30,815 nucleotides of DNA, taken from Candidatus Omnitrophota bacterium (GTDB taxonomy: Bacteria; Omnitrophota; Gorgyraeia; Gorgyraeales; Gorgyraeaceae). The DNA lies in contig JAHIUV010000066.1 of NCBI GenBank assembly GCA_018817035.1, positions 1-30,815 of the forward strand. The letters are read 5' to 3'. Shown here piece by piece: positions 20 to 30,417 of the stretch. Every line of letters starts with the position of its first letter. The first letter of the stretch is position 1. Both the position numbers and the translations under genes were made by a program. The notes beneath the pieces were generated by a model. The model searched no databases. It had not been told where the DNA came from and worked only from the letters and a program-made list of their open reading frames with translations.

Positions 20-1648
20 ATGGAGAACATAGGCTTGTTGGACGAGGCAAAGATAAAAAAAGCCCTCGCTGAACAGTCGAAATCCGGCGGACGTTTTTCA
101 AGGATACTCGTTGACCTCGGATATGTATCGAATCAGGAAGTCGGCAAAACCCTTATTCCCCAGATAGGCATGTTACCTTTAGCGATAAAGCTTCAGGATA
201 TAGAGGATAATGCCAGGAAAGCCCTGCCGTCTAATATCGCGCTCCTTCATAGGCTCTGTCCCGTAAAATACGAATCCGATACCCTTGTTTTAGCGACAGA
301 TGATCCGCTTAACTTCCTTGCCGCCGAAAACCTGGAAAAAATACTCAGCACCCCCTTAAAATTAGAATTGATCTATTCCGCTGGCCTGGACGCCTTACTT
401 AAAAGTATATACGCCGCTGAAAAAAAGTCAGATGTTGACCTGGAAAAAATGTCAAAGGATATAAAGAATATAAAGGGCGGGGAGGACGCGCCTATAATAA
501 AATTGGTAAATGCCGTGATCGCCGAGGCAATGAAACGCCGCGCGAGCGATATTCACGTGGAGCCCCTTGAGAGTAAGTTCCGCATACGCTACAGGATAGA
601 CGGCGTCCTGCATGAGGTACCCGGCCCGCCCAAGAGACTGGAAGGTTCAGTGATAAGCAGGATAAAGATAATGTCAGGAATGGACATAGCTGAAAAACGC
701 CTGCCCCAGGACGGCAGGATAAAAATAGATATCGATAAAAAAAATATAGACCTCCGCGTATCCAGCCTTCCCGGAATACACGGCGAGAGCATCGTCATGA
801 GGATCCTTGACAAGACCAGTTTTCTCGTAGGCTTGGAAAATCTAGGCTTTTTGCCTGACCAGAGAAAACCTTTTGAGAAAATAATCAATCTTCCTAACGG
901 CATGGTGCTGGTTACCGGCCCTACGGGAAGCGGCAAGACGACTACGCTGTACGCGACGCTGAGCCATGTAAACCAAAAAGACCGCAAAGTCATTACCATA
1001 GAAGACCCCGTGGAATATCAGCTCGACGGTATTAACCAGGTCCAGGTAAAGCCGCAGATAGGGCTTACTTTCGCGGGAGGCCTCAGGTCAATGCTCAGGC
1101 AGGCGCCTGATATAATAATGGTAGGCGAAATACGAGACCTGGAAACCGCGGAAATATCTATCCAGTCCGCGCTCACAGGGCATTTGATCTTTAGTACACT
1201 GCATACCAATGACGCTTCAAGCGCTGTTACCAGATTAGTCGACATGGGTATCAAAACCTATCTGGTTTCCTCCACTGTCCAGGGTGTACTTGCCCAGAGG
1301 CTGGTAAGAACGATATGTCCTGCCTGCAGGGAAGCGTATAAGCCTTCAAAAGAAGAAGCGGAGTTCTTGATGCTTAAGCCTGAGGAAGAAAAGCAAATCG
1401 AGCTTTACAGGGGCAAGGGCTGTTCCGCATGCAGCGATACGGGGTTCAAGGGCAGGATGGGCATATTCGAGCTTCTGGTAATCGATGATGAGATACGCGA
1501 GTTGATATTAAATAACGCGTCAAGCTCTGAAATAAGCCTAAAGGCAAAATCATCAGGCATGAGGTCACTAAAAGAAGATGGTATTGAAAAAGTAAAAAGA
1601 GGTTATACAAGCATAGGAGAAGTATTAAGGGTAACCCAAGACACTTAA
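20..1648 (+). CDS. GspE/PilB-family secretion/pilus assembly ATPase; the frame is open to the left edge, so the true start may lie upstream
   Basis: Walker A GPTGSGKT, TIEDPVEY Asp box, Walker B region LRQAPDIIMVGEIRD, His box STLHTND, and CPAC...CSAC zinc motif. Codons from position 2 (aag ata gta aaa gaa gtc atg) contain no stop. Confidence 0.93.
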   Translation: MENIGLLDEAKIKKALAEQSKSGGRFSRILVDLGYVSNQEVGKTLIPQIGMLPLAIKLQDIEDNARKALPSNIALLHRLCPVKYESDTLVLATDDPLNFLAAENLEKILSTPLKLELIYSAGLDALLKSIYAAEKKSDVDLEKMSKDIKNIKGGEDAPIIKLVNAVIAEAMKRRASDIHVEPLESKFRIRYRIDGVLHEVPGPPKRLEGSVISRIKIMSGMDIAEKRLPQDGRIKIDIDKKNIDLRVSSLPGIHGESIVMRILDKTSFLVGLENLGFLPDQRKPFEKIINLPNGMVLVTGPTGSGKTTTLYATLSHVNQKDRKVITIEDPVEYQLDGINQVQVKPQIGLTFAGGLRSMLRQAPDIIMVGEIRDLETAEISIQSALTGHLIFSTLHTNDASSAVTRLVDMGIKTYLVSSTVQGVLAQRLVRTICPACREAYKPSKEEAEFLMLKPEEEKQIELYRGKGCSACSDTGFKGRMGIFELLVIDDEIRELILNNASSSEISLKAKSSGMRSLKEDGIEKVKRGYTSIGEVLRVTQDT

Positions 1649-1659
1649 CTTTACATTGC

Positions 1660-1684
1660 TTGTTCGAGGCTTAGCCTCGAACAA
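1660..1684. repeat. Perfect 11-bp palindrome (REP-like or terminator-like hairpin)
   Basis: TTGTTCGAGGC-tta-GCCTCGAACAA between the two ATPase genes. It shares TTGTTCGAG with the REP copies at 5297 and 16312. Confidence 0.7.
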
Positions 1685-1707
1685 ATGCTACGCAACGGCG
1701 GGAAATC

Positions 1708-3417
1708 ATGGCTGCTAATTCGCAATATGCTATATTATTAAATAAACTTGTCGATAGTAATCTTTTGACTCAGCAGATCATAGACGAGGCCTTTGAAGAG
1801 GAAAAAAAGACAGGTAAAAATATCCTGAAGGTACTCGTGGACCATGGCTATGTAAAAGAAGAGGATTTATTGGACGCCGTAGCGAATTTCCTGAGCATGG
1901 AAGTAGCTGATCTTTCCAAGCTAAGCGTGGAGAGGGACGCTATAAATAAGATATCCGCGTCCACCGCGAAGTTTTATAACATAGTCCCTGTCCGTATCCA
2001 GGGCGACGCGGTAGTGGTCGCGGTCGCTGACCCGCTGAACATGAAACTCCTTGATGACTTGCGCTTTGTCACGGGATTTAATATAAAAATAGTAATAGCC
2101 AAAAGTGTTGATATTAAAAAAGCGATAGACCGTTATTACGGCGAAGAAGAAGAATCCCTCGGGGACGTGATTGACGAGGCCGAAAAAATATCCGGTAAGG
2201 CCATTATTAAAGGACAAGGCGATGTAGATAAATTAAAGGAAATAGCGTCGCAGGCACCTGTTGTAAAATTATTAAACATGGTACTTTTGCGCGCGATAAG
2301 GGAAAAAGCATCCGACATACACTTTGAGCCTTTTGAAAAAGATTACAAGATACGATACAGGATAGACGGTATTTGCTATGACGCCGCGCATCCGCCTAAA
2401 GACCTTAGCCTGGCGGTAAGCTCCAGGATAAAGGTCATGGCTAATCTTGACGTCGCCGAGAACCGCTTGCCGCAGGACGGCAGGATTATGATAGACATAA
2501 GCGGTAACAGCGTTGACCTTCGCGTCTCGACTTTACCGACGCTGTATGGGGAGAGCATAGTAATGAGGGTTTTAGATAAGAACGTGGTAAGCCTTTCCCT
2601 TGACCAGTTGGGCATGGACGATGATATTAAATCTAAGTTAAGGGCATTGATAAAAAGGCCGAACGGCATTTTATTGACGACCGGCCCCACGGGAAGCGGT
2701 AAGACTACCACTCTTTATTCATGCCTGCGAGAGATAAATAAAGTGGAGTATAAGATAATCACTGTAGAGGACCCCGTCGAATATGACATAGACGGCATAA
2801 TCCAGGTCGCTATAAACACTAAGATCGACCTCACTTTCGCCAGGACGCTCCGTCATATGCTGCGACAGGATCCCGATGTCCTGATGGTGGGAGAGATCCG
2901 TGACTCTGAAACAGCCGAGATAGCGATCCAGTCAGCGCTGACAGGCCATCTTGTCTTCAGCACTTTGCATACCAATGATGCCCCCGGAGCCGTCACGAGG
3001 CTTACGGATATGGGCGTGGAACCGTTCCTGATCACTTCTACAGTAAGAGCTGTCATAGCCCAAAGGCTCATAAGAAAGATATGCCAGAAATGTAAAAAAG
3101 CATACGAGCCGCAGAAGCACGAATTAGCGGAATTAGGCATTTCCGGGGAAAAAGCAAAAGGCGTAAAATTCTATAAAGGAGAAGGCTGCTCAGAATGCAA
3201 TAGCTCAGGCTATAAAGGCCGCTGCGGAATATACGAACTGCTTGTATTGGATGATAAAATAAGGGAATTAGTGGTACAGCGTAAAAGCGTAGCCGCCATA
3301 AGGAACGCGGCGCGCGCAACAGGCATGAAAACACTGCGCGAGGACGGTACAGAAAAGATATTCTCCGGCATTACCACCGCCGAAGAAGTCCTGCGCGAGA
3401 CAAAAGAATACTCATAA
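1708..3417 (+). CDS. Second GspE/PilB-family ATPase with full N-terminal domain
   Basis: GPTGSGKT, TVEDPVEY, LRQDPDVLMVGEIRD, STLHTND, and CQKC...CSEC motifs. Confidence 0.95.
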   Translation: MAANSQYAILLNKLVDSNLLTQQIIDEAFEEEKKTGKNILKVLVDHGYVKEEDLLDAVANFLSMEVADLSKLSVERDAINKISASTAKFYNIVPVRIQGDAVVVAVADPLNMKLLDDLRFVTGFNIKIVIAKSVDIKKAIDRYYGEEEESLGDVIDEAEKISGKAIIKGQGDVDKLKEIASQAPVVKLLNMVLLRAIREKASDIHFEPFEKDYKIRYRIDGICYDAAHPPKDLSLAVSSRIKVMANLDVAENRLPQDGRIMIDISGNSVDLRVSTLPTLYGESIVMRVLDKNVVSLSLDQLGMDDDIKSKLRALIKRPNGILLTTGPTGSGKTTTLYSCLREINKVEYKIITVEDPVEYDIDGIIQVAINTKIDLTFARTLRHMLRQDPDVLMVGEIRDSETAEIAIQSALTGHLVFSTLHTNDAPGAVTRLTDMGVEPFLITSTVRAVIAQRLIRKICQKCKKAYEPQKHELAELGISGEKAKGVKFYKGEGCSECNSSGYKGRCGIYELLVLDDKIRELVVQRKSVAAIRNAARATGMKTLREDGTEKIFSGITTAEEVLRETKEYS

Positions 3418-5262: not shown

Positions 5263-5494
5263 GTAATCGATGAGTTATTGAGAGAGCGCGTCAAAATTGT
5301 TCGAGCGAGCCGACAAATATTCTTCTCGACTAGGCTCGAAGGATATTTGTCGGCGAGTCGAGAACCGTAAAGAGAGATCTTACGTTACCTCCCCCATAGA
5401 TCACCTGTTACTAAAAATGTAATGGGTGAGTTAACAGAGGCGCGGTAGCGACATGTCATTGCGAGAAGGAGCAAAGCGACGACGAAGCAATCTC
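5263..5494. repeat. Composite REP/MITE-like palindrome cluster
   Basis: Nested hairpin GCCGACAAATATTCTT (5309-5324) / AAGGATATTTGTCGGC (5339-5354) inside TTCGAGCG...AGTCGAGAA. Also a GTCATTGCGA...GAAGCAATCTC element (5455-5494) and GTAAT..GTGAGTTA-like ends at 5263, 5419 and inverted 5392-5411. Confidence 0.8.
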
Positions 5495-5601: not shown

Positions 5602-7839
5602 ATGAACGCACCTAAGATAATAAAGTTTACGGCGCTATGCATGATTTTATTGCTATTAACTGGCGCTCAGGGGTATTCAAGTGAATATTCTTCGGAAATA
5701 TCAGACATGCCCCGGAATCTGAGGATTCCCGTTAATTCTTCTTCTGATGAATTCGAGAACAGATTTTCACTGGTATCTAATCAGAATATAACCACAAAAA
5801 CACGCAGGGAATTCCTGGAAGAAATCACTGCCGCGGCTATTTTTCTTCCTTTATCCCCTCAGTTAATAATGCCCGGAATATCACCTGCCCAGCAAACAAA
5901 ACCAAGCATAGTGCCGCTTATAAGCAAATGGCTTGCGCAAAACGTAGCGCCTAACACAAAAGTCCCTTTAAGTTTTAAAGTCCCTGATTATTTAGCCGCT
6001 GAAACCTGGAAACAGACCCTGAGTGAACCCGAAGGAGGAGTCCACGAGAGGATGGTCTTGTCAGAAGGCCTTGTTATTTATGACGGTGGTGCGGCGCAGA
6101 TATTCCAGGCTTTGACAGGTGATATCCAGCCCGCTAAAGTCTTGGCTCGCGTCCTGTGGGAAGCGCGCCTGGGCCAGCTTGCCAGCTTGGATGCCACGGG
6201 AGGAAGTTTTGTTTATTCGGACCAGGATAATATCTCTTATAAGGAAGGGGAAAGAGGCTTTAGATTTAAAATAATAAATTCATACGGACATTGGCAATTA
6301 AAAGATATTTATACCGGAAAAATAACTACATGGAGCCAGTGGCAGCCTGTAGCCGGAGAAAATGCCTGGGCAGGGGTTTTAGGGCCCCTCGAAATTTACC
6401 TAAAAGAACACGGTAATGTTTATAAACCTGCTGTATTGGAAATGCGGCTCGCCGAAGAGGTTGCCAGGGCAGCTATAACATTACAGGCAGATAACGGCGG
6501 CATACGAATGGCGCCGAAAGGCACATGGTCGCCTCAGGAGCCGGGCACTAATCCCATGGGATACGAATGGCTGTTCAATGAGATCTCTACGGAGAATAAT
6601 CTATCCTGGCATGCCGCGTTCAATAAACTCTATCAGCTCACCGGAAAAAGTGTATATAAAAATGCCCTGAACGGCGTGGAAAATTACCTGAAGAAAAGTT
6701 TTGACGCGCAGAAAGGCGTATTTAACCAGGGTATGCACTATGATAAAGCAAGAAAAACATGGGCCTCTAACTCCACATTCGCGACAGATTGCCAGACATG
6801 GGCAATAGATGTGCTGGGAGCCGAAACAATAGACAAATGGTTTGGCGCTAACTCAGCTTACAGGTTATGGGCAAAAACTAAAGGATTAGCCGGTATTTAT
6901 AGTGGAAATAATTTAACAGCCCTTGATTTTACATCAAGAAAACAAGTGAAGAGCATTGAATGGACAGCCGGCGGTATTATGGCGGCGGCAATATTGTCAG
7001 ACTATTACGAAAAAAGCAACGCGAAGATATCTATAGAGTGCGGGAATGACGCGATATCCATGTATACCCATATGCAGAGCCTGGCAGTTAAATCAGGAGA
7101 CACCCTGGCATGGCCTTATTCTGACAAAAGGGCTCCTACGGGCCACGGCTGGACAGCGGCAGGCAAGATTTTAAGCACTGCTTCAACGTCGTGGATGGGG
7201 TTTATAGAAATAGCAGCCAATCCTTTTGTCCTGGGAGGCAGGCAGATCCCTGGGCTGGTAAAAGTGGTAAAAGCATCCGGCAGGAATATTTCAAACAAAA
7301 GCACCCAGATTTTACCCCAGCAGGAAATAAAAGAAAACAAAGTCAATTCTACAGGAAAAGACATCTGGCAGTTAGGTACCCCGGGGCAATATTCAGATTA
7401 TACATGGAAATCTAAAGCTGTTTGGAGTGATTTTAATCCACCGGTACAATTAATAGGCGGACAACCGCTTTTAATAGAGTATGAGATACGAGGTTCTGAT
7501 GTTATGGGTATTCAGTTAATACCTGTGGGCCAGTCTGAATCATCAATAGGCGACATGATCGTAGTTAGGGGCGTTGGAAATAAAAAATCCATTACTATTA
7601 CAGTCCCATCTACGCGAAGAGTACACAGGATCGCTTTTCAGATCGGGGAAAACGCATGGGGCAGATTAGGGGGCTCTATGAATGCAGTGCTTATCATAGA
7701 TTCCATAAAGCCTATCGCGCCTGGAAGCGGAACAAGCATGGCATTACCCGCGGATGACTTTAAAAATAATAAAATAGAACGAAGTTCTTTCTTGTCAAAC
7801 ATGTTTAAAGCCGCACTTTACCTGGGAATCTCTATTTAA
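5602..7839 (+). CDS. Secreted hypothetical protein; probable six-hairpin (alpha/alpha)6 glycosidase-like domain plus C-terminal beta-rich domain
   Basis: Hydrophobic N-terminal signal (MNAPKIIKFTALCMILLLLTGAQG). Trp/Glu-rich motifs STENNLS, DCQTWA, IEWTAG, WPYS, TGHGW and STASTSW recall uncharacterised six-hairpin glycosidase-like proteins; the fold call is from memory, not a search. Confidence 0.6.
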   Translation: MNAPKIIKFTALCMILLLLTGAQGYSSEYSSEISDMPRNLRIPVNSSSDEFENRFSLVSNQNITTKTRREFLEEITAAAIFLPLSPQLIMPGISPAQQTKPSIVPLISKWLAQNVAPNTKVPLSFKVPDYLAAETWKQTLSEPEGGVHERMVLSEGLVIYDGGAAQIFQALTGDIQPAKVLARVLWEARLGQLASLDATGGSFVYSDQDNISYKEGERGFRFKIINSYGHWQLKDIYTGKITTWSQWQPVAGENAWAGVLGPLEIYLKEHGNVYKPAVLEMRLAEEVARAAITLQADNGGIRMAPKGTWSPQEPGTNPMGYEWLFNEISTENNLSWHAAFNKLYQLTGKSVYKNALNGVENYLKKSFDAQKGVFNQGMHYDKARKTWASNSTFATDCQTWAIDVLGAETIDKWFGANSAYRLWAKTKGLAGIYSGNNLTALDFTSRKQVKSIEWTAGGIMAAAILSDYYEKSNAKISIECGNDAISMYTHMQSLAVKSGDTLAWPYSDKRAPTGHGWTAAGKILSTASTSWMGFIEIAANPFVLGGRQIPGLVKVVKASGRNISNKSTQILPQQEIKENKVNSTGKDIWQLGTPGQYSDYTWKSKAVWSDFNPPVQLIGGQPLLIEYEIRGSDVMGIQLIPVGQSESSIGDMIVVRGVGNKKSITITVPSTRRVHRIAFQIGENAWGRLGGSMNAVLIIDSIKPIAPGSGTSMALPADDFKNNKIERSSFLSNMFKAALYLGISI

Positions 7840-7882
7840 CACTCTTGCCCGAACTCGTATTGGGTAAGGGTGTTGTTGTTTC
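7838..7882 (+). terminator. Probable intrinsic terminator after the 745-aa gene
   Basis: AACACTCTTGCCC-gaactcgtatt-GGGTAAGGGTGTT stem with G-U pairs, followed by GTTGTTTCT. Confidence 0.55.
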
Positions 7883-7884
7883 TA

Positions 7885-8160
7885 GTCATAATTTCCTGCC
7901 CGTCAGGTTGTTGATTGATATTCCAATCCACTAGTATACCAAAATCCAAGAAGCATTTTATTTTAATGGAACCTCGGCGAGATCATCTGGGATCCTGACT
8001 AGGCCTCAATCGACGTGCGCTCCAAGCTAATGGTACAGACTTGCTCGGGTGTCCATGGGTTGAGCATGTGATTCCTGCTGAGGTTTGTGCCTAATCCCTT
8101 AAAGAGGGATATAGGATGTTTCTTCCCATTCCCGTTACGAAAACGAGTTTAATCTTGACT
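7885..8160 (+). repeat. Composite cassette-boundary repeat, copy R1 (segments B-C-D-E)
   Basis: 7885-8038 differs from 9443-9596 at only 4 of 154 positions (manual alignment). 8039-8160 is a more diverged match to about 9597-9724. Confidence 0.95.
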
Positions 8161-8182
8161 TTTTAAAATAATCTTATATAAT
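8155..8182 (+). promoter_or_regulatory. Putative promoter of the Fic gene
   Basis: TTGACT (8155-8160), 16-nt spacer, TATAAT (8177-8182), within the tandem ATAATCTTATATAATCTTATATA. Confidence 0.6.
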
Positions 8183-8217: not shown

Positions 8218-9276
8218 ATGAAGGATATGTTTGTTCAGAGATTTCAAAATCTGCCCGGCGAAATCATGTTAAAAATCGCCAAGATTGATGAATTAAAAGG
8301 ACAATGGATTGCAGGAGCTAAGCTGAACCCGCAGGCTTTAGGAAGACTTAAGAAGTCAGTGCTTGTTGCTTCAACAGGAGCTTCAACCCGCATTGAAGGC
8401 GCCCGGCTTCCCGATGAAGACATAGAGAAGTTAATGCGCGGGATTTCTATGCAGAAATTTACAGATCGCGATAAACAAGAAGTTAAGGGATATTATGAGT
8501 TGCTGCAGAATATCTTTGCGTCATGGAAAAGCATTAATTTTTCAGAAAGCGCCATTAAACATTTTCACAAAGAACTATTGAAATACGTTGAAAAAGACAG
8601 GCTTCACAGAGGCGAATACAAGAAAACAGAGAATAAAGTTCATATGATTGACGGGGAGGGTAAATCAATAGGCATTCTTTTTGATACCACTCCGGCATAT
8701 CTCACGCCTAAAGAGATGCAGGAGACAGTGGAACAGGCTCAGGAAGCATTAAAAAATATAAAATATCACCCATTACTTATCATAGGAAATTTTCTTGTAG
8801 AATTTTTAAAAATTCATCCTTTTCAAGATGGTAATGGCAGGCTTTCCAGGATACTTACTAATATTTTGCTATTGAAAGTTGGTTATTTATATATGCCTTA
8901 TGTTTCGCATGAGAAGTTAATAGAGGATGACAAGCCTGATTATTATATGGCATTGAGAAGAAGCCAGAAGACTTTAGGGGCTAAAAGCACGGATATCTCT
9001 CCATGGCTTGATTTTTTCTTATCAGTGATACTTAAGCAGTCTCAAATAGCTATAGGTCTTTTATCCAAGGAAAATATCGAAAAACTTTTATCTCTAAAAC
9101 AACTTGCTGTCTGGCAGTATCTGCAATCTGTCAAAGAAGCTGCCCCTGGCGAGATCGCGAAATCCGCAAAAATAGCCCGCCCAACAGTAAATCAAGTATT
9201 AAATAAGCTTTTACAATTTAAGAAAATAGAACGTATCGGGCTAGGCAGAAGTACCAGGTATAGGGTATTATCCTGA
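8218..9276 (+). CDS. Fic-family protein (class II-type) with C-terminal winged helix
   Basis: Canonical catalytic motif HPFQDGNGRLSR, N-terminal inhibitory-helix motif STRIEG matching (S/T)xxxE(G/N), C-terminal wHTH-like region ending GLGRSTRY, and SD GAGGG. Confidence 0.9.
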   Translation: MKDMFVQRFQNLPGEIMLKIAKIDELKGQWIAGAKLNPQALGRLKKSVLVASTGASTRIEGARLPDEDIEKLMRGISMQKFTDRDKQEVKGYYELLQNIFASWKSINFSESAIKHFHKELLKYVEKDRLHRGEYKKTENKVHMIDGEGKSIGILFDTTPAYLTPKEMQETVEQAQEALKNIKYHPLLIIGNFLVEFLKIHPFQDGNGRLSRILTNILLLKVGYLYMPYVSHEKLIEDDKPDYYMALRRSQKTLGAKSTDISPWLDFFLSVILKQSQIAIGLLSKENIEKLLSLKQLAVWQYLQSVKEAAPGEIAKSAKIARPTVNQVLNKLLQFKKIERIGLGRSTRYRVLS

Positions 9277-9310: not shown

Positions 9311-9724
9311 TGACAAATATGACATTTTGTACCGTTTTGGAAATTACCTACCAATCTGTCCCAGAATTGTGCTTCAAAGTGTCCCCTGGCCCCACAAGAG
9401 GGTGATTTGCTCAGGGGATTAGTGATTCACTTTATTTCCCCGGTCATAATTTCCTGCCCATCAGGCTATTGATTGATATTCCAATCCACTAGTATACCAA
9501 AATCCAAAAAGCATTTTATTTTAATGGAACCTCGGCGAGATCATCTGGGATCCTGACTAGGCCTCAATCGACGTGCGCTCCAAGCTAATGGTACAGCCTA
9601 TACCCTCGTGTGTCCTTGGATTGAGTTTGTGATTCCCGATGGAGTTTTTGTCTAACCTCTTAAAGAGGGGGATCAGGATGTCCTCCTTCCCATTCCCGCG
9701 ATAAAAAGCATCAAATTCTTGACT
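9311..9724 (+). repeat. Composite cassette-boundary repeat, copy R2 (most complete: A-B-C-D-E)
   Basis: 9311-9596 is near-identical to 12617-12889, and 9443-9596 is near-identical to 7885-8038. Confidence 0.95.
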
Positions 9725-9746
9725 TTTGGTGTAAATTTGTTATAAT
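9719..9746 (+). promoter_or_regulatory. Putative extended -10 promoter of the 595-aa gene
   Basis: TTGACT (9719-9724), 16 nt, TG-n-TATAAT (9738-9746). Confidence 0.7.
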
Positions 9747-9759
9747 ACGCTTAAATGCG

Positions 9760-9802
9760 AAGATAGCTGAAGGCCATGGGAAAAGCGGTCTTTTTTTGTC
9801 TT
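9760..9802 (+). promoter_or_regulatory. Leader hairpin with U7 tract (attenuator/terminator-like), homologous to 13086-13126
   Basis: AAGGCC (9770-9775) pairs with GGTCTT (9787-9792), AAGATA (9760-9765) pairs with TGTCTT (9797-9802), and there is a T7 run at 9791-9797. Confidence 0.5.
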
Positions 9803-9836
9803 GTAATATAAAGAGCTTTTAAAAGAGACTAAATAT

Positions 9837-11624
9837 ATGAGAAAGATTAATAAAATAATTAATATAGCCGTAGTCATATTTTTAATTTTTTGCACTATTT
9901 TACATGCTGATAACATAAAAGAAGAAAGTTGTTTACGTCCCTCAATAGGGAAACAAAAAACTTATGCCGACATAACAGAAAGAATGAAATTAAATTCAGA
10001 TATAATTTTTTCTAATATATTTGCAGAACAAGAGTTTCTAGGGGACTTAAATTCAGAAGCTTTTAGTATTTTGAGAACTATTTACGGAAAGAGGAGGGGC
10101 GATTTACCAGAAGAGATGTTTCTTGAGCATCGAGACTATCTCCTTTCTACCTTTGGGGAAATTAAGCCATTTCCAGATTTATACGATGTAAACTGTTATA
10201 AAATTTTATTTTTAAAAATACAAGCACTTGAAGCTTATTTTGATAAAATTGTTATACATTTGAATAAATTAGAGCCTTACGATGAGCTTAATGCCAAATA
10301 CAATGTTACTCAAAAACGTTCCGGAGATTTTAAAGATGGATATAATAACAATAGAGTTTCTTGGAAGCTAAGCGAATCAATCAATAATTTAAAAGAGAAA
10401 AAGTATAAATTTTTAGAGATTCCATTTATTTTTCTTAATTCATGGGATTATGCATTTGGATTCAATACAGAAGGCTATAATGATGAAGATATAAATTTGA
10501 TGTTTGATGCTCCAACTATTGCTTTATGCAAAGAATTAAAGGGTTATTTGTTATATCTTGACGAAGTCAATAAAGGCAAAGGAATTAACACTAATATATT
10601 TTTAGAATGTATAACGTATTTAGCGCTCCGAGATAGCTTTACACATGAAGAAGCAAGTATTCTCATACAGGCCCTGTTTCCTGAAAATTATACAAAAAGC
10701 GTTGATTCAGATAAAGCTTCAGGATTGTTATATAAAGCTTTGAAGGATTTAAGAACGGTTGAGATAGCCATAGGATATTTGACGAGGCCGAGGCGTTCTA
10801 GCTGGCCACATGATAGACATTACGCTTTTCAAGAAATTGGCAGCGCTGTTATGAGTAGGGAGGTATTAAAGTACGCCCCTTTTTATAAAAGACTGCTCAG
10901 AGCAATGTTGTTATTTTCATTTACTCCTGACCATTCTGATTTGGCAGTGTATGATGGTTATATTGGAGGATTTTTGTATAGTTTAAATGCTACGGATGAT
11001 TTGGCATTAGCTACTTTGTGGGCTTTAGATAATCCGAATAACTTTGATAAATCTAAATCAGTGCAACCATATACAAATTTAGAATTAGAAGGAAAGCATT
11101 ATTACGTAGCTTCATTAATAGCAAGAAGAAATCAAAACATTGTAGAGGATAAAGAAAAACATTTTACCCATTCTGAAAAAATAGAAATTTTATTGACTAG
11201 CCTTAGATACTGCAGGGAGTCCAATTGGGATTTTTATTCTAGCGAAGAATTTGAATTTATCCCTATAAAATTGTTACCTTATTTACCTGATTTAACAGAT
11301 GAAGATATGAAACTTATATTGAACGAATTGGCTGACATAGTTGATGAGACAATAAAAAAGTCATTGTATAAGCACACAGCGGAATTCCGAAGGCTTTCTA
11401 TAATATTGAAAGCTATTGAGAATTTTATTGAAATTAGACCTGAAATTTCGTTACCTGCAAAATTAGTTAATTCAATTAATTTAATTTCTAGGGATAAAAT
11501 TCTCCAAGATAATGAGTTAACGGAAATTATACAGGTTGATTCTAATGATGAGATGCAAAAGAACACAGGAGAAGATATTTTGTCGAAGGTCAAAAAACAC
11601 CGCAATTTTTTGATACAATTATAA
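9837..11624 (+). CDS. AT-rich hypothetical secreted protein, no recognisable family
   Basis: 595-codon ORF with a basic plus hydrophobic N-terminus (MRKINKIINIAVVIFLIFCTILHA). Visibly more AT-rich than the housekeeping genes. Confidence 0.75.
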   Translation: MRKINKIINIAVVIFLIFCTILHADNIKEESCLRPSIGKQKTYADITERMKLNSDIIFSNIFAEQEFLGDLNSEAFSILRTIYGKRRGDLPEEMFLEHRDYLLSTFGEIKPFPDLYDVNCYKILFLKIQALEAYFDKIVIHLNKLEPYDELNAKYNVTQKRSGDFKDGYNNNRVSWKLSESINNLKEKKYKFLEIPFIFLNSWDYAFGFNTEGYNDEDINLMFDAPTIALCKELKGYLLYLDEVNKGKGINTNIFLECITYLALRDSFTHEEASILIQALFPENYTKSVDSDKASGLLYKALKDLRTVEIAIGYLTRPRRSSWPHDRHYAFQEIGSAVMSREVLKYAPFYKRLLRAMLLFSFTPDHSDLAVYDGYIGGFLYSLNATDDLALATLWALDNPNNFDKSKSVQPYTNLELEGKHYYVASLIARRNQNIVEDKEKHFTHSEKIEILLTSLRYCRESNWDFYSSEEFEFIPIKLLPYLPDLTDEDMKLILNELADIVDETIKKSLYKHTAEFRRLSIILKAIENFIEIRPEISLPAKLVNSINLISRDKILQDNELTEIIQVDSNDEMQKNTGEDILSKVKKHRNFLIQL

Positions 11625-11661: not shown

Positions 11662-11853
11662 TACCGTTTGCAAATCTGATCTTATAAGTGTCCCCATCTC
11701 CAAGATTGAATATGCCCCATTAGGGAAAATAGAGACAGCGTCCGTTTTCCCCAGTCATAATTTCCTGCCCCACAGTCTATTCCCAGATATACCAGTCTAT
11801 TTTGAAGGTGCAGACTTGTCTATGTATCTATGTGTTGAGTTTGTGATTCCTGC
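11662..11853 (+). repeat. Degenerate boundary repeat, copy R3 (decayed A, core B, C lost, D retained)
   Basis: TACCGTTTG and AAGTGTCCCC (11686-11695) from segment A, exact GTCATAATTTCCTGCCC (11754-11770), and GGTGCAGACTTG...GTTGAGTTTGTGATTCCTGC (11807-11853). Confidence 0.85.
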
Positions 11854-11882: not shown

Positions 11883-11910
11883 TTGAAATAGACAATTTAT
11901 ATGATATAAT
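11883..11910 (+). promoter_or_regulatory. Putative extended -10 promoter giving a near-leaderless HEPN-MNT transcript
   Basis: TTGAAA (11883-11888), 16 nt, TG-n-TATAAT (11902-11910); ATG at 11920. Confidence 0.65.
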
Positions 11911-11919
11911 AGCGCCTAT

Positions 11920-12301
11920 ATGAAGAGCGAGACAAAGAATTGGTTAGACATGGTTGATTATGATTTGATAACGGCCAAGCAAATGCTTGAGACGAGCCGT
12001 TATTTTTATGTGTCATATGGCAATCGAAAAGGCTCTTAAGGCTATAGTTTGTGAAGAGACCGATAAAGTTCCTCCCAAAACCCATGATTTAATATATTTA
12101 ACGGGTCTCGGAAAGGTAAAATTGACCCCGGATACATTAGACTTCATAGGGATGATAAACAACGCCGGCATAGTAACTAGATATCCCGAAGATTTATCAA
12201 AGCTCGTTTCCAGTTATCCCGTAGATGTAGCCAAAGAATATTTACAAAAAACTCAAGAGGTAATAAAATGCATAAAACAGAACCCCGTATTGAAGGGATA
12301 A
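11920..12301 (+). pseudogene. HEPN-domain protein (COG2250-like) broken by a frameshift near 12000
   Basis: The frame from ATG 11920 gives the HEPN N-terminus MKSETKNWLDMVDYDLITAKQMLETSRY and stops at 12039. A different frame carries VIFMCHMAIEKALKA...PKTHDL...TRYP to 12301. Confidence 0.8.
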
Positions 12302-12591
12302 TAAAAGAGTATACGCAAGGTTTAAAAAAATTAGGCATTAATGTCGAGCGTGTAATTCTCTACGGCTCTTTTGCAGAAGGGAAGCACCGAATAGACAGCG
12401 ATATTGATATAATCGTAGTATCTAAAGATTTTCAATCCATGAATTTAAGAGAGCGGTTGGAGGTTTTGGGGGTTGCTGCAGTAAGAATAATGAAACCTAT
12501 TGAAGCAAAAGGCTATACTCCGGAAGAAATAAAAGAGGCATCCCAAGCTAGTTTTTTGAAAGAGATTTTAGAAGTAGGAGTCAGCGTTTAA
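12268..12591 (+). CDS. Minimal nucleotidyltransferase (MNT), putative antitoxin partner of the HEPN gene
   Basis: GS-x10-DxD motif (YGSFAEGKHRIDSDID), 107 aa, overlapping the HEPN 3' end. Confidence 0.88.
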   Translation: MHKTEPRIEGIIKEYTQGLKKLGINVERVILYGSFAEGKHRIDSDIDIIVVSKDFQSMNLRERLEVLGVAAVRIMKPIEAKGYTPEEIKEASQASFLKEILEVGVSV

Positions 12592-12616: not shown

Positions 12617-12930
12617 TGACAATTTGACAATTTGTACCGTTTTGGAAAGTACCTACCAATCTGTCCCAGAATTGTGCTTCAAAGTGTCCCCTGGCCTTAC
12701 AAGAGGGTGAGTTGCTCAGGGGATTAGTGATTCACTTTATTTCCCAGGTCATAATTTCCTGCCCGTCAGGCTATTGATTGATATTCCACTCCACCAGTAT
12801 ACTAAAATCCAAGAAGCATTTTATTTTAATGGAACCTCGGCGATCCTGACTAGGCCTCAATCGACGTGCGCTCCAAGCTAATGGTATAGGCTTGCTCGGG
12901 TATCCATGGATTGAGTTTGTAATTCCTGCA
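12617..12930 (+). repeat. Composite boundary repeat, copy R4 (A-B-C-D; 12-nt deletion in C)
   Basis: Near-identical to 9311-9596 but lacks GAGATCATCTGG. Segment D matches R1. Confidence 0.95.
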
Positions 12931-13046: not shown

Positions 13047-13074
13047 TTGACTTCTCGTTAAAGTTTGATATAAT
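13047..13074 (+). promoter_or_regulatory. Putative extended -10 promoter of the 492-aa gene
   Basis: TTGACT (13047-13052), 16 nt, TG-n-TATAAT (13066-13074). Confidence 0.7.
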
Positions 13075-13085
13075 AATCATAAATT

Positions 13086-13126
13086 GGACAAAGGCAAGAT
13101 CATGGGGAAATGGTCTTTTTTTGTCC
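13086..13126 (+). promoter_or_regulatory. Leader hairpin with U7 tract, homologous to 9760-9802
   Basis: AAGATCAT (13096-13103)-ggggaa-ATGGTCTT (13110-13117), outer GGACAAA/TTTGTCC, and a T7 run at 13116-13122. Confidence 0.55.
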
Positions 13127-13166
13127 TGTAATATTAGCAGGTTTTAAAAGGGATTTTTAACATATT

Positions 13167-14645
13167 ATGCGAAAGTTAGAAAAATTGTTTTTCCTCCTGA
13201 TATCTTTTGTGATCATGATAGATAATATACCCATCATACCTGTCTGTGCTTCAGAAACCCTTAGAGTCCCGCTTTATTTTGAAAAGAAGGAAATTGCGGT
13301 CGAAGATATCAGGAAGATTTCAAAGTCTATATTAGACGAGTTTTTTAGTGGTAAGGTTGTATCTTCACCGATTGCCAAGGCGTTCTTGCAAGAGTTAGAC
13401 CCGAAGTCCTATAGCGCAGTAATAGTCAGTATGACGGAAAAATATTTTAAAAGAGAGACATTTTTCGATACAAATAAAAATGGAATTACTGAGATAGAAA
13501 AGAGGTTAGAAGGTTACGTTAAAAGAAGACGCTCTTTGGAATCTGAAGATCTTCAAAAATTCATGGAATTATTTTTAAGCCATATAAAAAAGATAGTCAG
13601 CGAGATTGAACGGGAGCCTCCTGTTCTCACTGACAATAAAAACCGCGCTATAAGCATTGATATACTATTAAATGATGCAGAGGATTTCGTTGAAGGACAA
13701 ATCAAAGATATCGAAGTAAAAACCAGGATAGCGGAATTATCAGGCAAGATTTATGCCCATGTTGCTATTGTCGACAATAAGGAGATGGACGAGCTTTTGA
13801 GTAAAATAACAAAAAAATATCTGCAACTGTTCGACCGTTTTAAGGAAGAAGCAGATCCTCGCGAATCGCCTTTCTCATCAAGTATAATTTACACAGACTA
13901 TCATCACCCTGTCAGCGGGTGGATGTTAGAATCTTCCATGATGGTGGATGGCGAGTATAATTTTAGATTAGCGAAACAGACATCCCTGCGGACATCTGAA
14001 TTGATTTCGCTTTTGGTGTTTGTCGACAAAGGAAAAATCACGTATTTTGCCCCCGGAAATGATATAGAAAAACGGGAAGAATATAGAGAGGGTATACTTA
14101 TGTCTACTCAGCCTATTCCTGGACGCTTGAAGGTAGTTGTTATTGATCCTTTATCCGAGGAGTTCCAGCGAGACGTTGAAGAAAAGCTGTATAGATACGC
14201 AGAAAGAGAATACGAAGTGCTAAGTAGGATAGAAGAAATAAATCGAATGGGTCGTCTATTAAGAGAGATATTAAATAATAAAAAACATCCTAAAAGAAGC
14301 GCCTTTCCCTCAGATGAAGATATAAAGAAAAGCATAAAAAAAATCGAAGAAGAAAAGGCCGGCCTAAATAAAGAATTGGAAATAGGAAGCATTACTGTAG
14401 ATAAATTAGAGCTCATGATAAGGGAGCGGGTTGTTGCCATAGAGAACCTTCCATCAGGAGCTTTTGCTAATGCTGGCGCAATGTCATTCCGGGATTTAGG
14501 CTTATCTTCTCCCTTGGACTTATTGCATGGTATTGATAAGATGTACCCAATTATAGAGCAACTTTTATTAAAAGGAAAATTTCCTGACAAAATACCAGTA
14601 AATAATTTTTTATTCCTACCGCGCGACACGCAAACTTACCTCTAA
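13167..14645 (+). CDS. Hypothetical secreted protein, charged and helical, no recognisable family
   Basis: 492-codon ORF with N-terminus MRKLEKLFFLLISFVIMIDNIPIIPVCA. Confidence 0.75.
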   Translation: MRKLEKLFFLLISFVIMIDNIPIIPVCASETLRVPLYFEKKEIAVEDIRKISKSILDEFFSGKVVSSPIAKAFLQELDPKSYSAVIVSMTEKYFKRETFFDTNKNGITEIEKRLEGYVKRRRSLESEDLQKFMELFLSHIKKIVSEIEREPPVLTDNKNRAISIDILLNDAEDFVEGQIKDIEVKTRIAELSGKIYAHVAIVDNKEMDELLSKITKKYLQLFDRFKEEADPRESPFSSSIIYTDYHHPVSGWMLESSMMVDGEYNFRLAKQTSLRTSELISLLVFVDKGKITYFAPGNDIEKREEYREGILMSTQPIPGRLKVVVIDPLSEEFQRDVEEKLYRYAEREYEVLSRIEEINRMGRLLREILNNKKHPKRSAFPSDEDIKKSIKKIEEEKAGLNKELEIGSITVDKLELMIRERVVAIENLPSGAFANAGAMSFRDLGLSSPLDLLHGIDKMYPIIEQLLLKGKFPDKIPVNNFLFLPRDTQTYL

Positions 14646-14657
14646 TAAAAAGTAGAA

Positions 14658-14738
14658 AAGTATCCCCTTTTCCCCGGTCATAATTTCCTGCCCGTCAGGC
14701 TATTGATTGATCTCCTGCCTTAATAGTATAATTAATCC
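14658..14738 (+). repeat. Boundary repeat copy R5, which is the native upstream/promoter region of the beta-propeller gene
   Basis: 14677-14711 GTCATAATTTCCTGCCCGTCAGGCTATTGATTGAT is identical to 12748-12782. TTGATT (14703-14708), 18 nt, TATAAT (14727-14732); ATG at 14739 is 7 nt after the -10 box, suggesting a leaderless mRNA. Confidence 0.85.
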
Positions 14739-16262
14739 ATGAAATATTTTATTTTTCCCGTGATATTGGCTGTTTTTGCTTTTGCCCCTATAGCGATAGC
14801 CGACGAAACATGGGAGCGCGTCACAGGCATCACCGAGCCCAATATCAGGGAAATAGCCATCAGCGGCATGGCTTTATACAGCGCGTCTGCCAGGAACCTG
14901 TATCGCAGTGAAGACGACGGCAATACCTGGCACGGCGTATTTTCCGCGAGAGGCGAGGACAATGCCATAAACTTTATAGCCGCTTTAAGGAACTGCGTTT
15001 TTGTCTGCACTAACAGGGGATTATTTAAAAGCATTGACGGCAAAGCAGGATGGAAGAATATATTTAAAGGAATAGGCGCCGAAGAAAAATCAGTATTCCA
15101 CATAGCTCTTTCCGGGGACAAAAATCTCTATCTCGGCACAAAAAAAGGATTATTTACCAGCTCAGATAATGGCGCTACATGGAAAAAAGGCACAGGCCTT
15201 GCCGCGGATCTTAGCGTATCATGGGTATCTTTTTATGAAGACAGCGTACTTTTAGCCACAGAAAAAGGCATATATAAAAATTCAGGCACTGATTGGAAAA
15301 GAACATTCATCGCGTCTTCCGAGGAAACCGAATACGACATTGACTCGCAGGACGAATCCCTAAGCGCCATGAATCCGGTCAATAGCATAGCAACAGCCCA
15401 GGACAAGATCTACCTTGCCACGAACTCCGGCATATTTATAAGCGATAACAAAGGCGAATCATGGCAGAGCTTCGAGTCCACAGGCCTCGGTTCGCAAAAG
15501 ATCAACCGATTACTGGTTCTCGACTCGCAAACGCAATATCCTTCGAGCGCAGTCGAGAAGAATATATTATTTGCCGCTACTGATAATGGCGTATTTATAT
15601 TCAGTGATGACGATAAAACATGGCAAGCAGTATATAAAGGGATAGACGCAGATAAAATAAACTCTATACGCGCGGACAATAAAGGCAGGTTATGGGCTGC
15701 TACTAATAAAGGGTTATATAGATCGAAAGGGGTTCTTGGCGTTAATATTCTTCGAGCGAGTGAAACGAGTCGAGAAGAAAATATCCTGAAAGAAATCAAC
15801 CACGAACCTACCATAAGGCAAGTCCAGAATGCGGCAATCGAATACGCTGAAGTAAACCCCAACAAAATAAAAAACTGGAGAAGACGCGCAAACCTAAAAG
15901 CTTTTTTTCCGGAGGTATCAATAGATTATGACAAAACTATCAATTATGACAGCGGAGCTGATACATATTACATAGGTCCGCACGACTGGGGCGCCACCGT
16001 AAAATGGGATCTCGGCGAGCTTATATGGAATCCCGACCAGACATCAATAGACGTCAGATCAAAATTAATGGTGCAACTGCGCGACGATATACTTGACGAG
16101 GTGACAAGGGCGTATTTTGAGCGGAGAAGGTTACAGATGGAACTGCATTTCAACCCTCCGGAAAACCCAAAATCAAAGATGGAAAAAGAACTGCGCCTAC
16201 AGGAATTAACAGCCGACCTGGATGGCCTCACAGGAGGTTGCTTTTCCAGCCAACTTAAATAA
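14739..16262 (+). CDS. Secreted BNR/Asp-box beta-propeller protein with C-terminal helical domain resembling a single TolC/OEP repeat
   Basis: Signal peptide, repeated S-x-D-x-G-x-(T/S)-W Asp boxes (SEDDGNTW, SSDNGATW, SDNKGESW), and C-terminus EPTIRQVQNAAIEYA...WDLGELIW...DEVTRAYFERRRLQ. The TolC-like call is inference. Confidence 0.7.
   Translation: MKYFIFPVILAVFAFAPIAIADETWERVTGITEPNIREIAISGMALYSASARNLYRSEDDGNTWHGVFSARGEDNAINFIAALRNCVFVCTNRGLFKSIDGKAGWKNIFKGIGAEEKSVFHIALSGDKNLYLGTKKGLFTSSDNGATWKKGTGLAADLSVSWVSFYEDSVLLATEKGIYKNSGTDWKRTFIASSEETEYDIDSQDESLSAMNPVNSIATAQDKIYLATNSGIFISDNKGESWQSFESTGLGSQKINRLLVLDSQTQYPSSAVEKNILFAATDNGVFIFSDDDKTWQAVYKGIDADKINSIRADNKGRLWAATNKGLYRSKGVLGVNILRASETSREENILKEINHEPTIRQVQNAAIEYAEVNPNKIKNWRRRANLKAFFPEVSIDYDKTINYDSGADTYYIGPHDWGATVKWDLGELIWNPDQTSIDVRSKLMVQLRDDILDEVTRAYFERRRLQMELHFNPPENPKSKMEKELRLQELTADLDGLTGGCFSSQLK
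15517..15559. repeat. REP-like palindrome read in frame inside the CDS
   Basis: TTCTCGACT (15517-15525)...AATATCCTTCGAGCGCAGTCGAGAA, compared with intergenic AATATTGTTCGAGCGCAGTCGAGAA at 26301-26325. Confidence 0.75.
15744..15776. repeat. Second REP-like element in frame inside the CDS (33 nt)
   Basis: AATATTCTTCGAGCGAGTGAAACGAGTCGAGAA, compared with intergenic AATATTCTTCGAGCGACCAAAGGGAGTCGAGAA at 23724-23756. Confidence 0.85.
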
Positions 16263-16275
16263 CCATGCGGTTTTA

Positions 16276-16467
16276 GTAATCAGTGAGTTGACAGAGGAAG
16301 GTAGGTCAATATTGTTCGAGTCCCTCGACTACGCTCGGGATAAACTTAAAGAGTCGAGAACTCTCTGAACATGCTTCTCGACTACGTCCCGATACTTCGG
16401 GACTCCGCTCGAAGAATATTTACACACGGGAAAAGCTTTACAGTATCCCTGATAACTCACCGGTTAC
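16276..16467. repeat. Composite REP/MITE-like cluster
   Basis: Head-to-head TTCGAG...AGTCGAGAA units and a GTCCCGATACTTCGGGAC hairpin, bracketed by imperfect inverted ends at 16276-16297 and 16447-16467. Confidence 0.8.
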
Positions 16468-20413: not shown

Positions 20414-20441
20414 AAAAATAAAGGACACAACCGACTCGAAA

Positions 20442-20526
20442 AATATTCTTCGAGCGGAGTCCCGAAGTATCGGGACGGAGTCGAGAAGCTAACTTCATAA
20501 AACTGCAATGCACTGTGAAGTTAAGG
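20442..20526. repeat. REP-like element plus AACTTCA...TGAAGTT hairpin
   Basis: AATATTCTTCGAGCGGAGTCCCGAAGTATCGGGACGGAGTCGAGAA, near-identical to 30351-30396. Confidence 0.85.
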
Positions 20527-30312: not shown

Positions 30313-30417
30313 GTCATTGCGAACACGAAGCGCCCGAAGCAATCTCGATCAATATTCTTCGAGCGGAGTCCCGAAGTATCGGGACGAAGTCGAGAAGGTA
30401 ATGGCGAGAAGTTAAGG
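30313..30417. repeat. Composite REP cluster
   Basis: GTCATTGCGA...GAAGCAATCTC, then AATATTCTTCGAGCGGAGTCCCGAAGTATCGGGACGAAGTCGAGAA, then GAAGTTAAGG. Confidence 0.85.

Follow-up and report, generated by a model that had tools for sequence, protein, structure and literature searches.

What kind of process leaves broken copies of one gene between a series of unrelated genes, with the gene itself intact at the end of the series? The question is raised by a 30,815-nucleotide (nt) stretch of DNA from a Candidatus Omnitrophota bacterium (contig JAHIUV010000066.1 of assembly GCA_018817035.1; hereafter, the window), in which an array of cargo genes lies directly upstream of a gene for a beta-propeller protein (14739-16262, plus strand) that we refer to as X; all codon numbers follow the window's copy of X. 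The boundaries between the cargo genes carry a repeat that an initial annotation had described as an internally deleted ghost of X. We find that it is such a ghost, that codon 446 is joined in every copy to a conserved ~50-nt non-gene element (D4), and that this junction is constant in at least seven genera of three families as well as in metagenomes. The genome is a metagenome-assembled genome (MAG) of 1.47 Mb that is 91% complete, and the array is present in four groundwater metagenome runs.

A repeat search and a MAFFT alignment that took in five intergenic regions of the window located the composite repeat, always on the plus strand, at 7885-8041 (R1), 9443-9599 (R2; 97% identical) and 12748-12904 (R4; with a 12-nt deletion). 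A related but shorter copy occupies 11746-11853 (R3), and the native upstream counterpart is found at 14669-14735 (R5). Each full ghost begins with the upstream element of X (U) and continues through a weakened promoter into the first ~6 codons of the gene (17-19 nt), in which ATG has become AAG, before jumping to the 72 nt that correspond to codons 423-446. The ATG-to-AAG change and the relation of the ghost -10 hexamers (TATACC or TATACT) to the native TATAAT are as the initial annotation had them. Of the first codons, however, no more than ~6 are retained, and the repeat does not end at 8038 as had been proposed, but runs on into D4 to ~8095. The collapsed unit (U, promoter, six codons, 72 nt and D4) thus measures ~220 nt. 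The component features are as follows.

7877-7919, plus strand: R1 copy of U, with the 17-nt core and the -35 hexamer TTGATT (from the alignment)
7911-7966, plus strand: R1 ghost promoter TTGATT-18-TATACC and start-codon remnant, AAG at 7948-7950
7967-8038, plus strand: R1 ghost of codons 423-446, with an in-frame TAG (alignment, shuffles and six-frame search)
8039-8095, plus strand: R1 D4 with a ~20-nt extension, following codon 446 and not gene-derived
9316-9442, plus strand: segment just before U, common to R2 and R4 only, 95% identical to 12621-12745
9435-9698, plus strand: R2, with U, ghost promoter, start remnant, codons 423-446 (9525-9596), a diverged D4 and an insertion sequence (IS) remnant (9653-9698)
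11746-11853, plus strand: R3, with a larger deletion: diverged U, decayed promoter region, approximately codons 444-446, and D4 (11807-11853)
12621-12929, plus strand: R4, with the pre-U segment, U, ghost promoter (TATACT), start-codon remnant, codons 423-446 with a 12-nt deletion (12830-12889) and D4 (12883-12929), and no IS remnant
14669-14738, plus strand: R5, native U and promoter of X, TTGATT-18-TATAAT (alignment and promoter scan)
14739-16262, plus strand: intact X, with a signal peptide, a BNR/Ycf48-like beta-propeller and a C-terminal domain (family scan and alignment)

The relationship of the 72-nt block to X is well beyond chance. When 7967-8038 is compared with its counterpart in X (16005-16076), 53 of the 72 nt and 19 of the 24 amino acids (aa) are identical, and 10 of the codons differ only synonymously, exactly as had been counted by hand; nine further codons are unchanged and five differ non-synonymously, one of them a Gln codon that has become TAG. 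The best ungapped match to X among 500 shuffles of the 72-mer was 37/72. A six-frame search of the whole assembled genome recovered both full ghost copies with E ~1e-6 and detected no paralogue of X elsewhere in its 1.47 Mb. The initial annotation had spoken of a gene family as the source; the relation to X stands, but as none of the other array genes has BLASTP similarity to X, the "family" consists of one gene.

Where did the ghost come from? The 19 differences between ghost and X are distributed over codon positions 1, 2 and 3 as 7, 0 and 12, and it is the ten synonymous codon changes together with the lack of any second-position change that lead us to conclude that the ghost is derived from a diverged allele of X that evolved as a protein. 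This agrees with the earlier suggestion of a homologue under protein-level selection rather than the resident copy, and the block is indeed closest to an X fragment in a relative (58/72, contig G024:C62), followed by the X genes of G012 and G023 (55/72 each), with resident X at 53/72. The further suggestion of a foreign donor needs to be narrowed: the allele is diverged, but its source was not distant. In both the ghost and resident X the promoter lies 6-7 nt from the start codon, whereas in other genera the leader is ~110 nt or longer, and this common short spacing points to a fairly close lineage despite the ~25% nucleotide divergence. We also considered whether resident X is itself chimeric at codon 446; identity does vary along the gene, but so does its general conservation, and the comparison was uninformative.

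U behaves differently from the coding block. Its 17-nt core (7885-7901 in R1) is invariant in all five copies, and the U of resident X matches those of R2 and R4 at 42 of 43 positions, compared with ~50% identity in the adjacent spacer and 74% in the coding block. U also precedes X in three relatives (G011, G022 and G024).

Because R1, R2 and R4 have a single deletion junction in common, the collapse must have preceded their multiplication, as the initial annotation had surmised. Its other proposal, that ~1.2 kb had been lost, is borne out by relatives in which the same X::D4 fusion is either undeleted or deleted differently. The undeleted form is seen most clearly in metagenome contig L197, where an open reading frame (ORF) of 452 aa (309-1667) has a start codon, a signal peptide, codons 1-446 and an 11-residue tail encoded by D4, and is followed by a nucleotidyltransferase (MNT)/HEPN-type cassette. 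Two further proteins (P0002 and P0006) have the same ending, and cargo proteins of 1304 and 1224 aa, respectively, come after them. The codons of X that remain before D4 in the deleted forms are:

Window R1, R2 and R4: 1-6 and 423-446
Window R3 and G024:C128: approximately 444-446
G005: 422-446
G013:C132: approximately 432-446
G011: 274-301 and 423-445, directly after the stop codon of the family-2 glycosyltransferase (GT2) gene
G032: 1-335
G336, from another family: the last two codons

Taken together, the undeleted and variously deleted forms indicate that X(1-446)::D4 was the starting point of a series of decay products to which the window ghost belongs. R3 has a particularly close counterpart in G024:C128, with 85.5% identity over the 207 nt from D4 to the start of the HEPN gene and a further match (85%) in a 60-nt piece around its U. 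The ghosts of other genomes belong to other lineages of X: the L197 block is 67/72 identical to the intact X of G011, and the ghosts of G005 and G011 resemble each other at 61/72. It follows that the codon-446/D4 junction has been joined to several alleles.

D4 itself is better conserved across genera (85-92%) than the coding block beside it, is predicted to form a hairpin in most copies, and has a TTCCTGC motif in common with U. It is found only at this locus, wherever the surrounding context was readable. D4 does not appear to be decayed X sequence from beyond codon 446, since local alignments to eight X tails were no better than those of shuffled sequences, and neither the ghost nor D4 is an insertion sequence or miniature inverted-repeat transposable element, both being confined to this locus and having no inverted partner. 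When a degenerate D4 pattern was run over all species genomes it proved too loose, and the matches listed were mostly due to chance; a stricter pattern matched three metagenome contigs, of which L197 was decisive. Viral contigs contained neither D4 nor a relative of X. A second type of arm, present in G011 and L221, has marginal similarity to D4 (z ~2.5-2.8).

The position of the ghosts is as constant as their junction. Throughout the family, two secretion-type ATPase genes, pseudopilin genes and the GT2 gene are followed by X, a TPR protein gene, the DNA polymerase I gene (PolA) and further genes, and the adjacency of X to the TPR and PolA genes is kept. The distance between GT2 and X is only 290-435 nt in G026 and G008, which represent the empty site, and 0.9-9.5 kb, filled with unrelated cargo, in G018, G010, G007, G012, G011 and the window. 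Given these differences, the ghosts occupy a hot spot for insertions that is common to the family and immediately precedes X. The G011 ghost occupies the slot where X sits in empty-site relatives, and in G037, from a third family (f2), D4 comes right after the pseudopilin genes, which is the same slot. The two ATPase genes are neighbouring paralogues in the window (20-3417; direct repeats D6 and D7), and in all relatives that were read, paralogous ATPase and pseudopilin genes sit just upstream of the hot spot.

X is not always retained at this site. In G003:C3 (L219, 4468-5349) it is reduced to codons 438-505 between the GT2 and TPR genes, and in G001, of the same genus as the window, neither X nor a ghost was matched. 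With this remnant and this missing match, X looks dispensable, judged from genomes that are 81% (G003) and 86% (G001) complete. In G001 the GT2 gene is followed by three giant secreted paralogues (1346-1643 aa), so that this genome provides no empty-site comparison.

The most informative feature for the mechanism is what flanks the cargo: to its left a truncated X with D4, and to its right a copy in which the 5' end of X is retained. The same direct-repeat layout, with the intact gene at one end, is seen in the window, G011 and G032, and in the window and G032 a truncated copy with its own 5' end and a complete copy have the same orientation. Flanking of this kind is the architecture of an insertion-duplication. 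In G032, the left copy consists of codons 1-335, D4 and HEPN/MNT genes (G032:C283, L229), and the right copy of the upstream region and codons 1-24 and 336-505 in frame (G032:C128, L250). The two have decayed in a complementary fashion, one keeping the signal peptide and propeller and the other a signal peptide fused to the C-terminal domain.

We therefore favour, with a probability of about one half, a history of repeated single-crossover (Campbell-type) insertion-duplication by DNA that carried a 3'-truncated X, followed by decay and multiplication of the ghost. The incoming DNA, presumably circular, would have contained X cut after codon 446 and joined to D4, a strong outward promoter and cargo genes, and would have entered the chromosome through one crossover with X or with U. 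After such an insertion the cargo would be preceded by the truncated X::D4 and followed by a complete X, so that X would never be lost and the truncated copy would be free to decay; in the window it would have lost codons 7-422, the start codon and a Gln codon. The collapsed ghost would then have been copied along the array, supplying repeated homology between cassettes, and from that point a crossover in U would suffice to add a cassette and would leave X untouched. The crossovers were probably homologous (RecA-type) and made without a dedicated recombinase, and the ghosts may still act as recombination handles.

Evidence for crossovers of this type comes from mosaic alleles. Over approximately codons 53-373 the truncated copy in L197 is 98-99% identical to the intact X of G011, but identity is only ~80% over the upstream region and first 50 codons and ~85% near codons 375-395; in addition, the allele type of the G011 left ghost switches in the middle of the 72-nt block. 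The X/D4 junction is fixed at codon 446, while the mosaic identity places exchanges at approximately codon 53, at approximately codons 375-395 and inside the 72-nt block. Pfam and NCBIfam scans found no recombinase among the array ORFs of the window, and the arrays read in G005, G011 and G024 likewise have no recombinase gene. The assembled genome contains one full tyrosine recombinase (PF00589), on contig C25, and one fragment, on C193. Mosaic crossovers inside X, together with an array that has no recombinase, favour ordinary homologous crossover.

Several observations weigh against this reading. No circular intermediate, excision joint or array variant was found in the four runs, whose unitigs are short and break at repeats; the joints listed involve REP-like palindromes or have just 21 nt on one side, and are unusable as evidence of excision. 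Nor was there any contig with a fresh, undecayed truncated copy together with an intact downstream copy. The other truncation junctions do not scatter along X but cluster just past the codon-446 block, at codons ~448 (L199), 452 (G024:C62 and P0003) and ~460 (G013:C128); such clustering would not be expected from random capture of gene fragments and hints at targeting. The L199 junction is followed, 50 nt further on, by the start of a gene for a serine recombinase. Near-identity of U fits a recent exchange, whether site-specific or homologous, and would also be explained by strong selection on U. The 745-aa cargo gene that lies between GT2 and the first ghost is not predicted by simple one-way accretion, and with the MAG 91% complete, a recombinase could lie in the missing part. 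At one of the clustered junctions (G024:C62, L029, 346-720), the copy of X is followed by a ~300-nt palindromic element and then by a promoter and a UvrD-like helicase gene, which makes it another junction type at the same spot.

These points lend some weight to site-specific tandem islands, an explanation that we consider possible but rather unlikely. Here a recombinase acting in trans, or since lost, would integrate elements just after codon 446, with D4 as the left-junction arm derived from the element; each element would bring a replacement upstream region and codons 1-446, so that X stays whole and the displaced copies stack up. Such a process would account for a codon-446 junction that is constant with X alleles of at least three lineages, for the other junction types within ~15 codons downstream, and for a D4 that is better conserved than the coding sequence next to it, has a predicted hairpin and carries the motif also present in U. 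It would also fit the near-identity of U in the ghosts and the resident copy, the recombinase gene right after the truncated X of L199, and the recurrence of the non-X arm of the G011 left ghost in G024:C83 (z = 9.5). On the other hand, the arrays that were read (the window, G005, G011 and G024) are devoid of recombinase genes, the mosaic identity puts crossovers at several places in X, and recombinases of the L199 type are very abundant, being located in three other contigs within larger tyrosine-integrase elements, away from X. We know of no precedent for 1.3 kb of a target gene being carried by the integrating element.

The recombinase in question belongs to a 176-aa serine recombinase family with 5093 proteins at E <= 1e-25 in Omnitrophota data, many of them 80-90% identical. 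Members were located in L199 (11348-11650), L220 (6634-7176), L246, L247 and L249; no match to the L199 type was obtained in the window's assembled genome. The integrative elements that carry this recombinase also encode a helix-turn-helix regulator and a tyrosine integrase, with HNH and primase-type proteins in two of the three contigs read.

Returning to insertion-duplication and the DNA it would have delivered, a strong sigma-70-like promoter follows each D4 in the window. These are the region's four best sites, each with 11 of 12 matches, and together with the IS remnant in R1 and the cargo genes they occupy the following positions.

5602-7839, plus strand: cargo left of the first ghost, 745-aa protein without a family hit whose start resembles a signal peptide
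8091-8134, plus strand: solo terminal inverted repeat of an IS481-like IS, in R1 (a ~40-nt motif with a second copy in R2, at 9653-9698)
8155-8182, plus strand: cargo promoter TTGACT-16-TATAAT, 11/12 (promoter scan)
8218-9276, plus strand: cargo, Fic-domain protein with a C-terminal winged-helix domain (family scan)
9719-9746, plus strand: cargo promoter after D4, 11/12 (promoter scan)
9837-11624, plus strand: cargo, 595-aa protein without a family hit whose start resembles a signal peptide
11883-11910, plus strand: cargo promoter after D4, 11/12 (promoter scan)
11987-12591, plus strand: cargo, HEPN toxin and MNT-type nucleotidyltransferase antitoxin pair (family scan)
13047-13074, plus strand: cargo promoter after D4, 11/12 (promoter scan)
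13167-14645, plus strand: cargo, 492-aa protein without a family hit whose start resembles a signal peptide

The HEPN-MNT pair has homologues that are 82-90% identical behind D4 in G005, G024, G032 and metagenome contig L196, while X in these genomes is only 44-56% identical over the parts found. By this comparison of sequences the cassettes evidently move between genera. No homologue of the 745-aa cargo was found at this site in the locus of any relative. The 595-aa and 492-aa genes have a common leader with a T-rich hairpin (9787-9828 and 13112-13153), and this leader recurs together with the IS motif and the promoter in G023:C32 (L056, ~6310-6423), ahead of a gene that, judged by eye, begins with codons similar to those of the 595-aa gene. 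The window's HEPN frame (ORF 11987-12301) starts late, giving 104 aa from a TTG codon compared with 130 aa in G024, and contigs from three of the four runs have 11 extra bases after 11998; the late start and the 11-base difference suggest that the toxin gene in this assembly may be a frameshifted or minority variant.

The ~40-nt motif between D4 and the cargo promoter in R1 and R2 (8096-8134 and 9653-9698) was initially a candidate recombination site. It can be discarded as such, as it forms both ends of a 1.47-kb IS481-like element in L053 (3537-5010), and being an IS terminal repeat it is a scar rather than part of the ghost. This element is multi-copy in related genera (seven matches in G006 and five in G020), and most matches of the motif in relatives lie ~100 nt from contig ends, where the IS breaks their assemblies. 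The window's genome has just the two solo ends and no close transposase copy.

A different view of the repeat is that it is kept for a present function, as a small RNA or read-through transcript, or with U and D4 as regulatory or insulating sites, its likeness to X reflecting only its origin. We regard this as improbable. R4 does retain a promoter-like TTGATT-18-TATACT with 9 of 12 matches, U and D4 are conserved across genera, and each D4 has the strong promoter behind it. The corresponding TATACC of R1 and R2, however, has no final T in its -10 hexamer and fails the -10 criterion of the scan, no terminator follows, and the amount of X-derived interior differs freely from genome to genome (0 to 446 codons). 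Searches of the boundaries for a tRNA, tmRNA or known RNA family gave no Rfam match, even at E values up to 1. A present function of this kind does not exclude insertion-duplication, with which it is compatible. Least probable by far is an integron-like array without an integrase (CALIN) in which the repeats are attC sites, for while the same-strand single-gene or toxin-antitoxin cassettes with a repeat between them are reminiscent of one, each cassette has its own strong promoter-like site (11/12), the repeat is the remnant of a gene with only direct repeats between boundaries and no imperfect palindrome (no dedicated attC model was run), and there is no integron-type integrase, the sole full tyrosine recombinase being on another contig.

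Inverted repeats in the window are limited to repetitive extragenic palindrome (REP)-like elements away from the boundaries. They lie at 5333-5442, 15744-15777, 16373-16467, 20441-20489 and 30351-30397, one of them inside the frame of X. In the four runs their summed depth is very high, with numerous joints and loose ends, and they appear to be highly repeated in the community.

How does the insertion-duplication that we favour compare with known systems? Campbell-type integration of a non-replicating circle with a gene fragment that contains the 5' end and is truncated at the 3' end is a standard genetic technique. Its product, a truncated copy, an insert and an intact copy in one orientation, corresponds to X(1-446)::D4, cargo and U-X in the window, and repetition of the process stacks units. 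The differences are that here it would be a natural process, recurring at the same conserved gene across several families of an uncultured phylum, and that a conserved D4 and promoter accompany differing cargo, with no vector or replicon identified.

Prophage e14 and phage 21 integrate in E. coli icd, and some islands carry a replacement gene end. As at X, the protein-coding target stays intact, a displaced fragment remains, and the duplicated part differs mainly synonymously. Those elements replace a short 3' end, however, and have their integrase beside the att site, whereas at X a long 5' part with its promoter (~1.4 kb) is duplicated, the fragments lie upstream, and the array contains no integrase. 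A resource on such islands is TIGER/Islander (PMC12424338). A likeness to tandem islands at tRNA and tmRNA genes had been suggested for the window, and in architecture it holds: unrelated cargo in the same orientation, partial target copies between, and an intact copy at one end. It does not extend to mechanism, as there is no integrase in the array and the crossovers inside X look homologous. Each island at a tRNA or tmRNA gene encodes its own tyrosine integrase, and the fragments that this enzyme makes are short duplicates of the att core; the window instead has one-gene units of 1-2 kb bounded by decayed long copies.

Orphan toxin-immunity modules are found downstream of rhs and cdiA genes. 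There too, an incoming allele recombines in a conserved stretch, the displaced part persists as an orphan stub, and arrays build up. In those systems the displaced part is the variable 3' tip and is itself the cargo; at X the conserved 5' body is displaced, and the arrays, which lie upstream, hold cargo that bears no relation to X. With integrons and CALINs the window has in common promiscuous small cassettes, including toxin-antitoxin pairs, collected in one orientation at one site, and it differs from integrons in having no attC palindromes or IntI, in the cassettes' own promoters, and in a repeat that is a gene remnant. A text search of the literature returned general reports on hypervariable loci in Omnitrophota and nothing on this locus. 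We consider the observation solid and the family-wide pattern new, with the mechanism half resolved; what is new are the constant codon-446/D4 junction in three families, the undeleted forms, the hot spot and the flanking architecture.

Integrases, transposases or integrons are the usual explanation for variable islands, and none of them is in sight in this array. Its boundaries can instead be interpreted as successive stages in the decay of a single host gene, ranging from intact 446-codon copies down to stubs of 3 codons, and either way the codon-446 block with D4 provides a sequence marker with which insertion events in Omnitrophota can be found and ordered. If a recombinase does target codon 446, we would be dealing with a new site-specific system, one in which a 1.3-kb replacement makes the target whole again. 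If the crossovers are homologous, a conserved gene fragment would be enough by itself to provide defence-type and secreted cargo with a portable address in uncultured bacteria with small genomes. More tentatively still, Omnitrophota might stack cassettes in an integrase-free manner, a portable 3'-truncated copy of a host gene with a D4-promoter module being the integration handle, and decayed handles acting like attC sites for shuffling and for exchange between genera. Were this so, any cassette with this handle could enter by one homologous crossover and leave the host gene unharmed.

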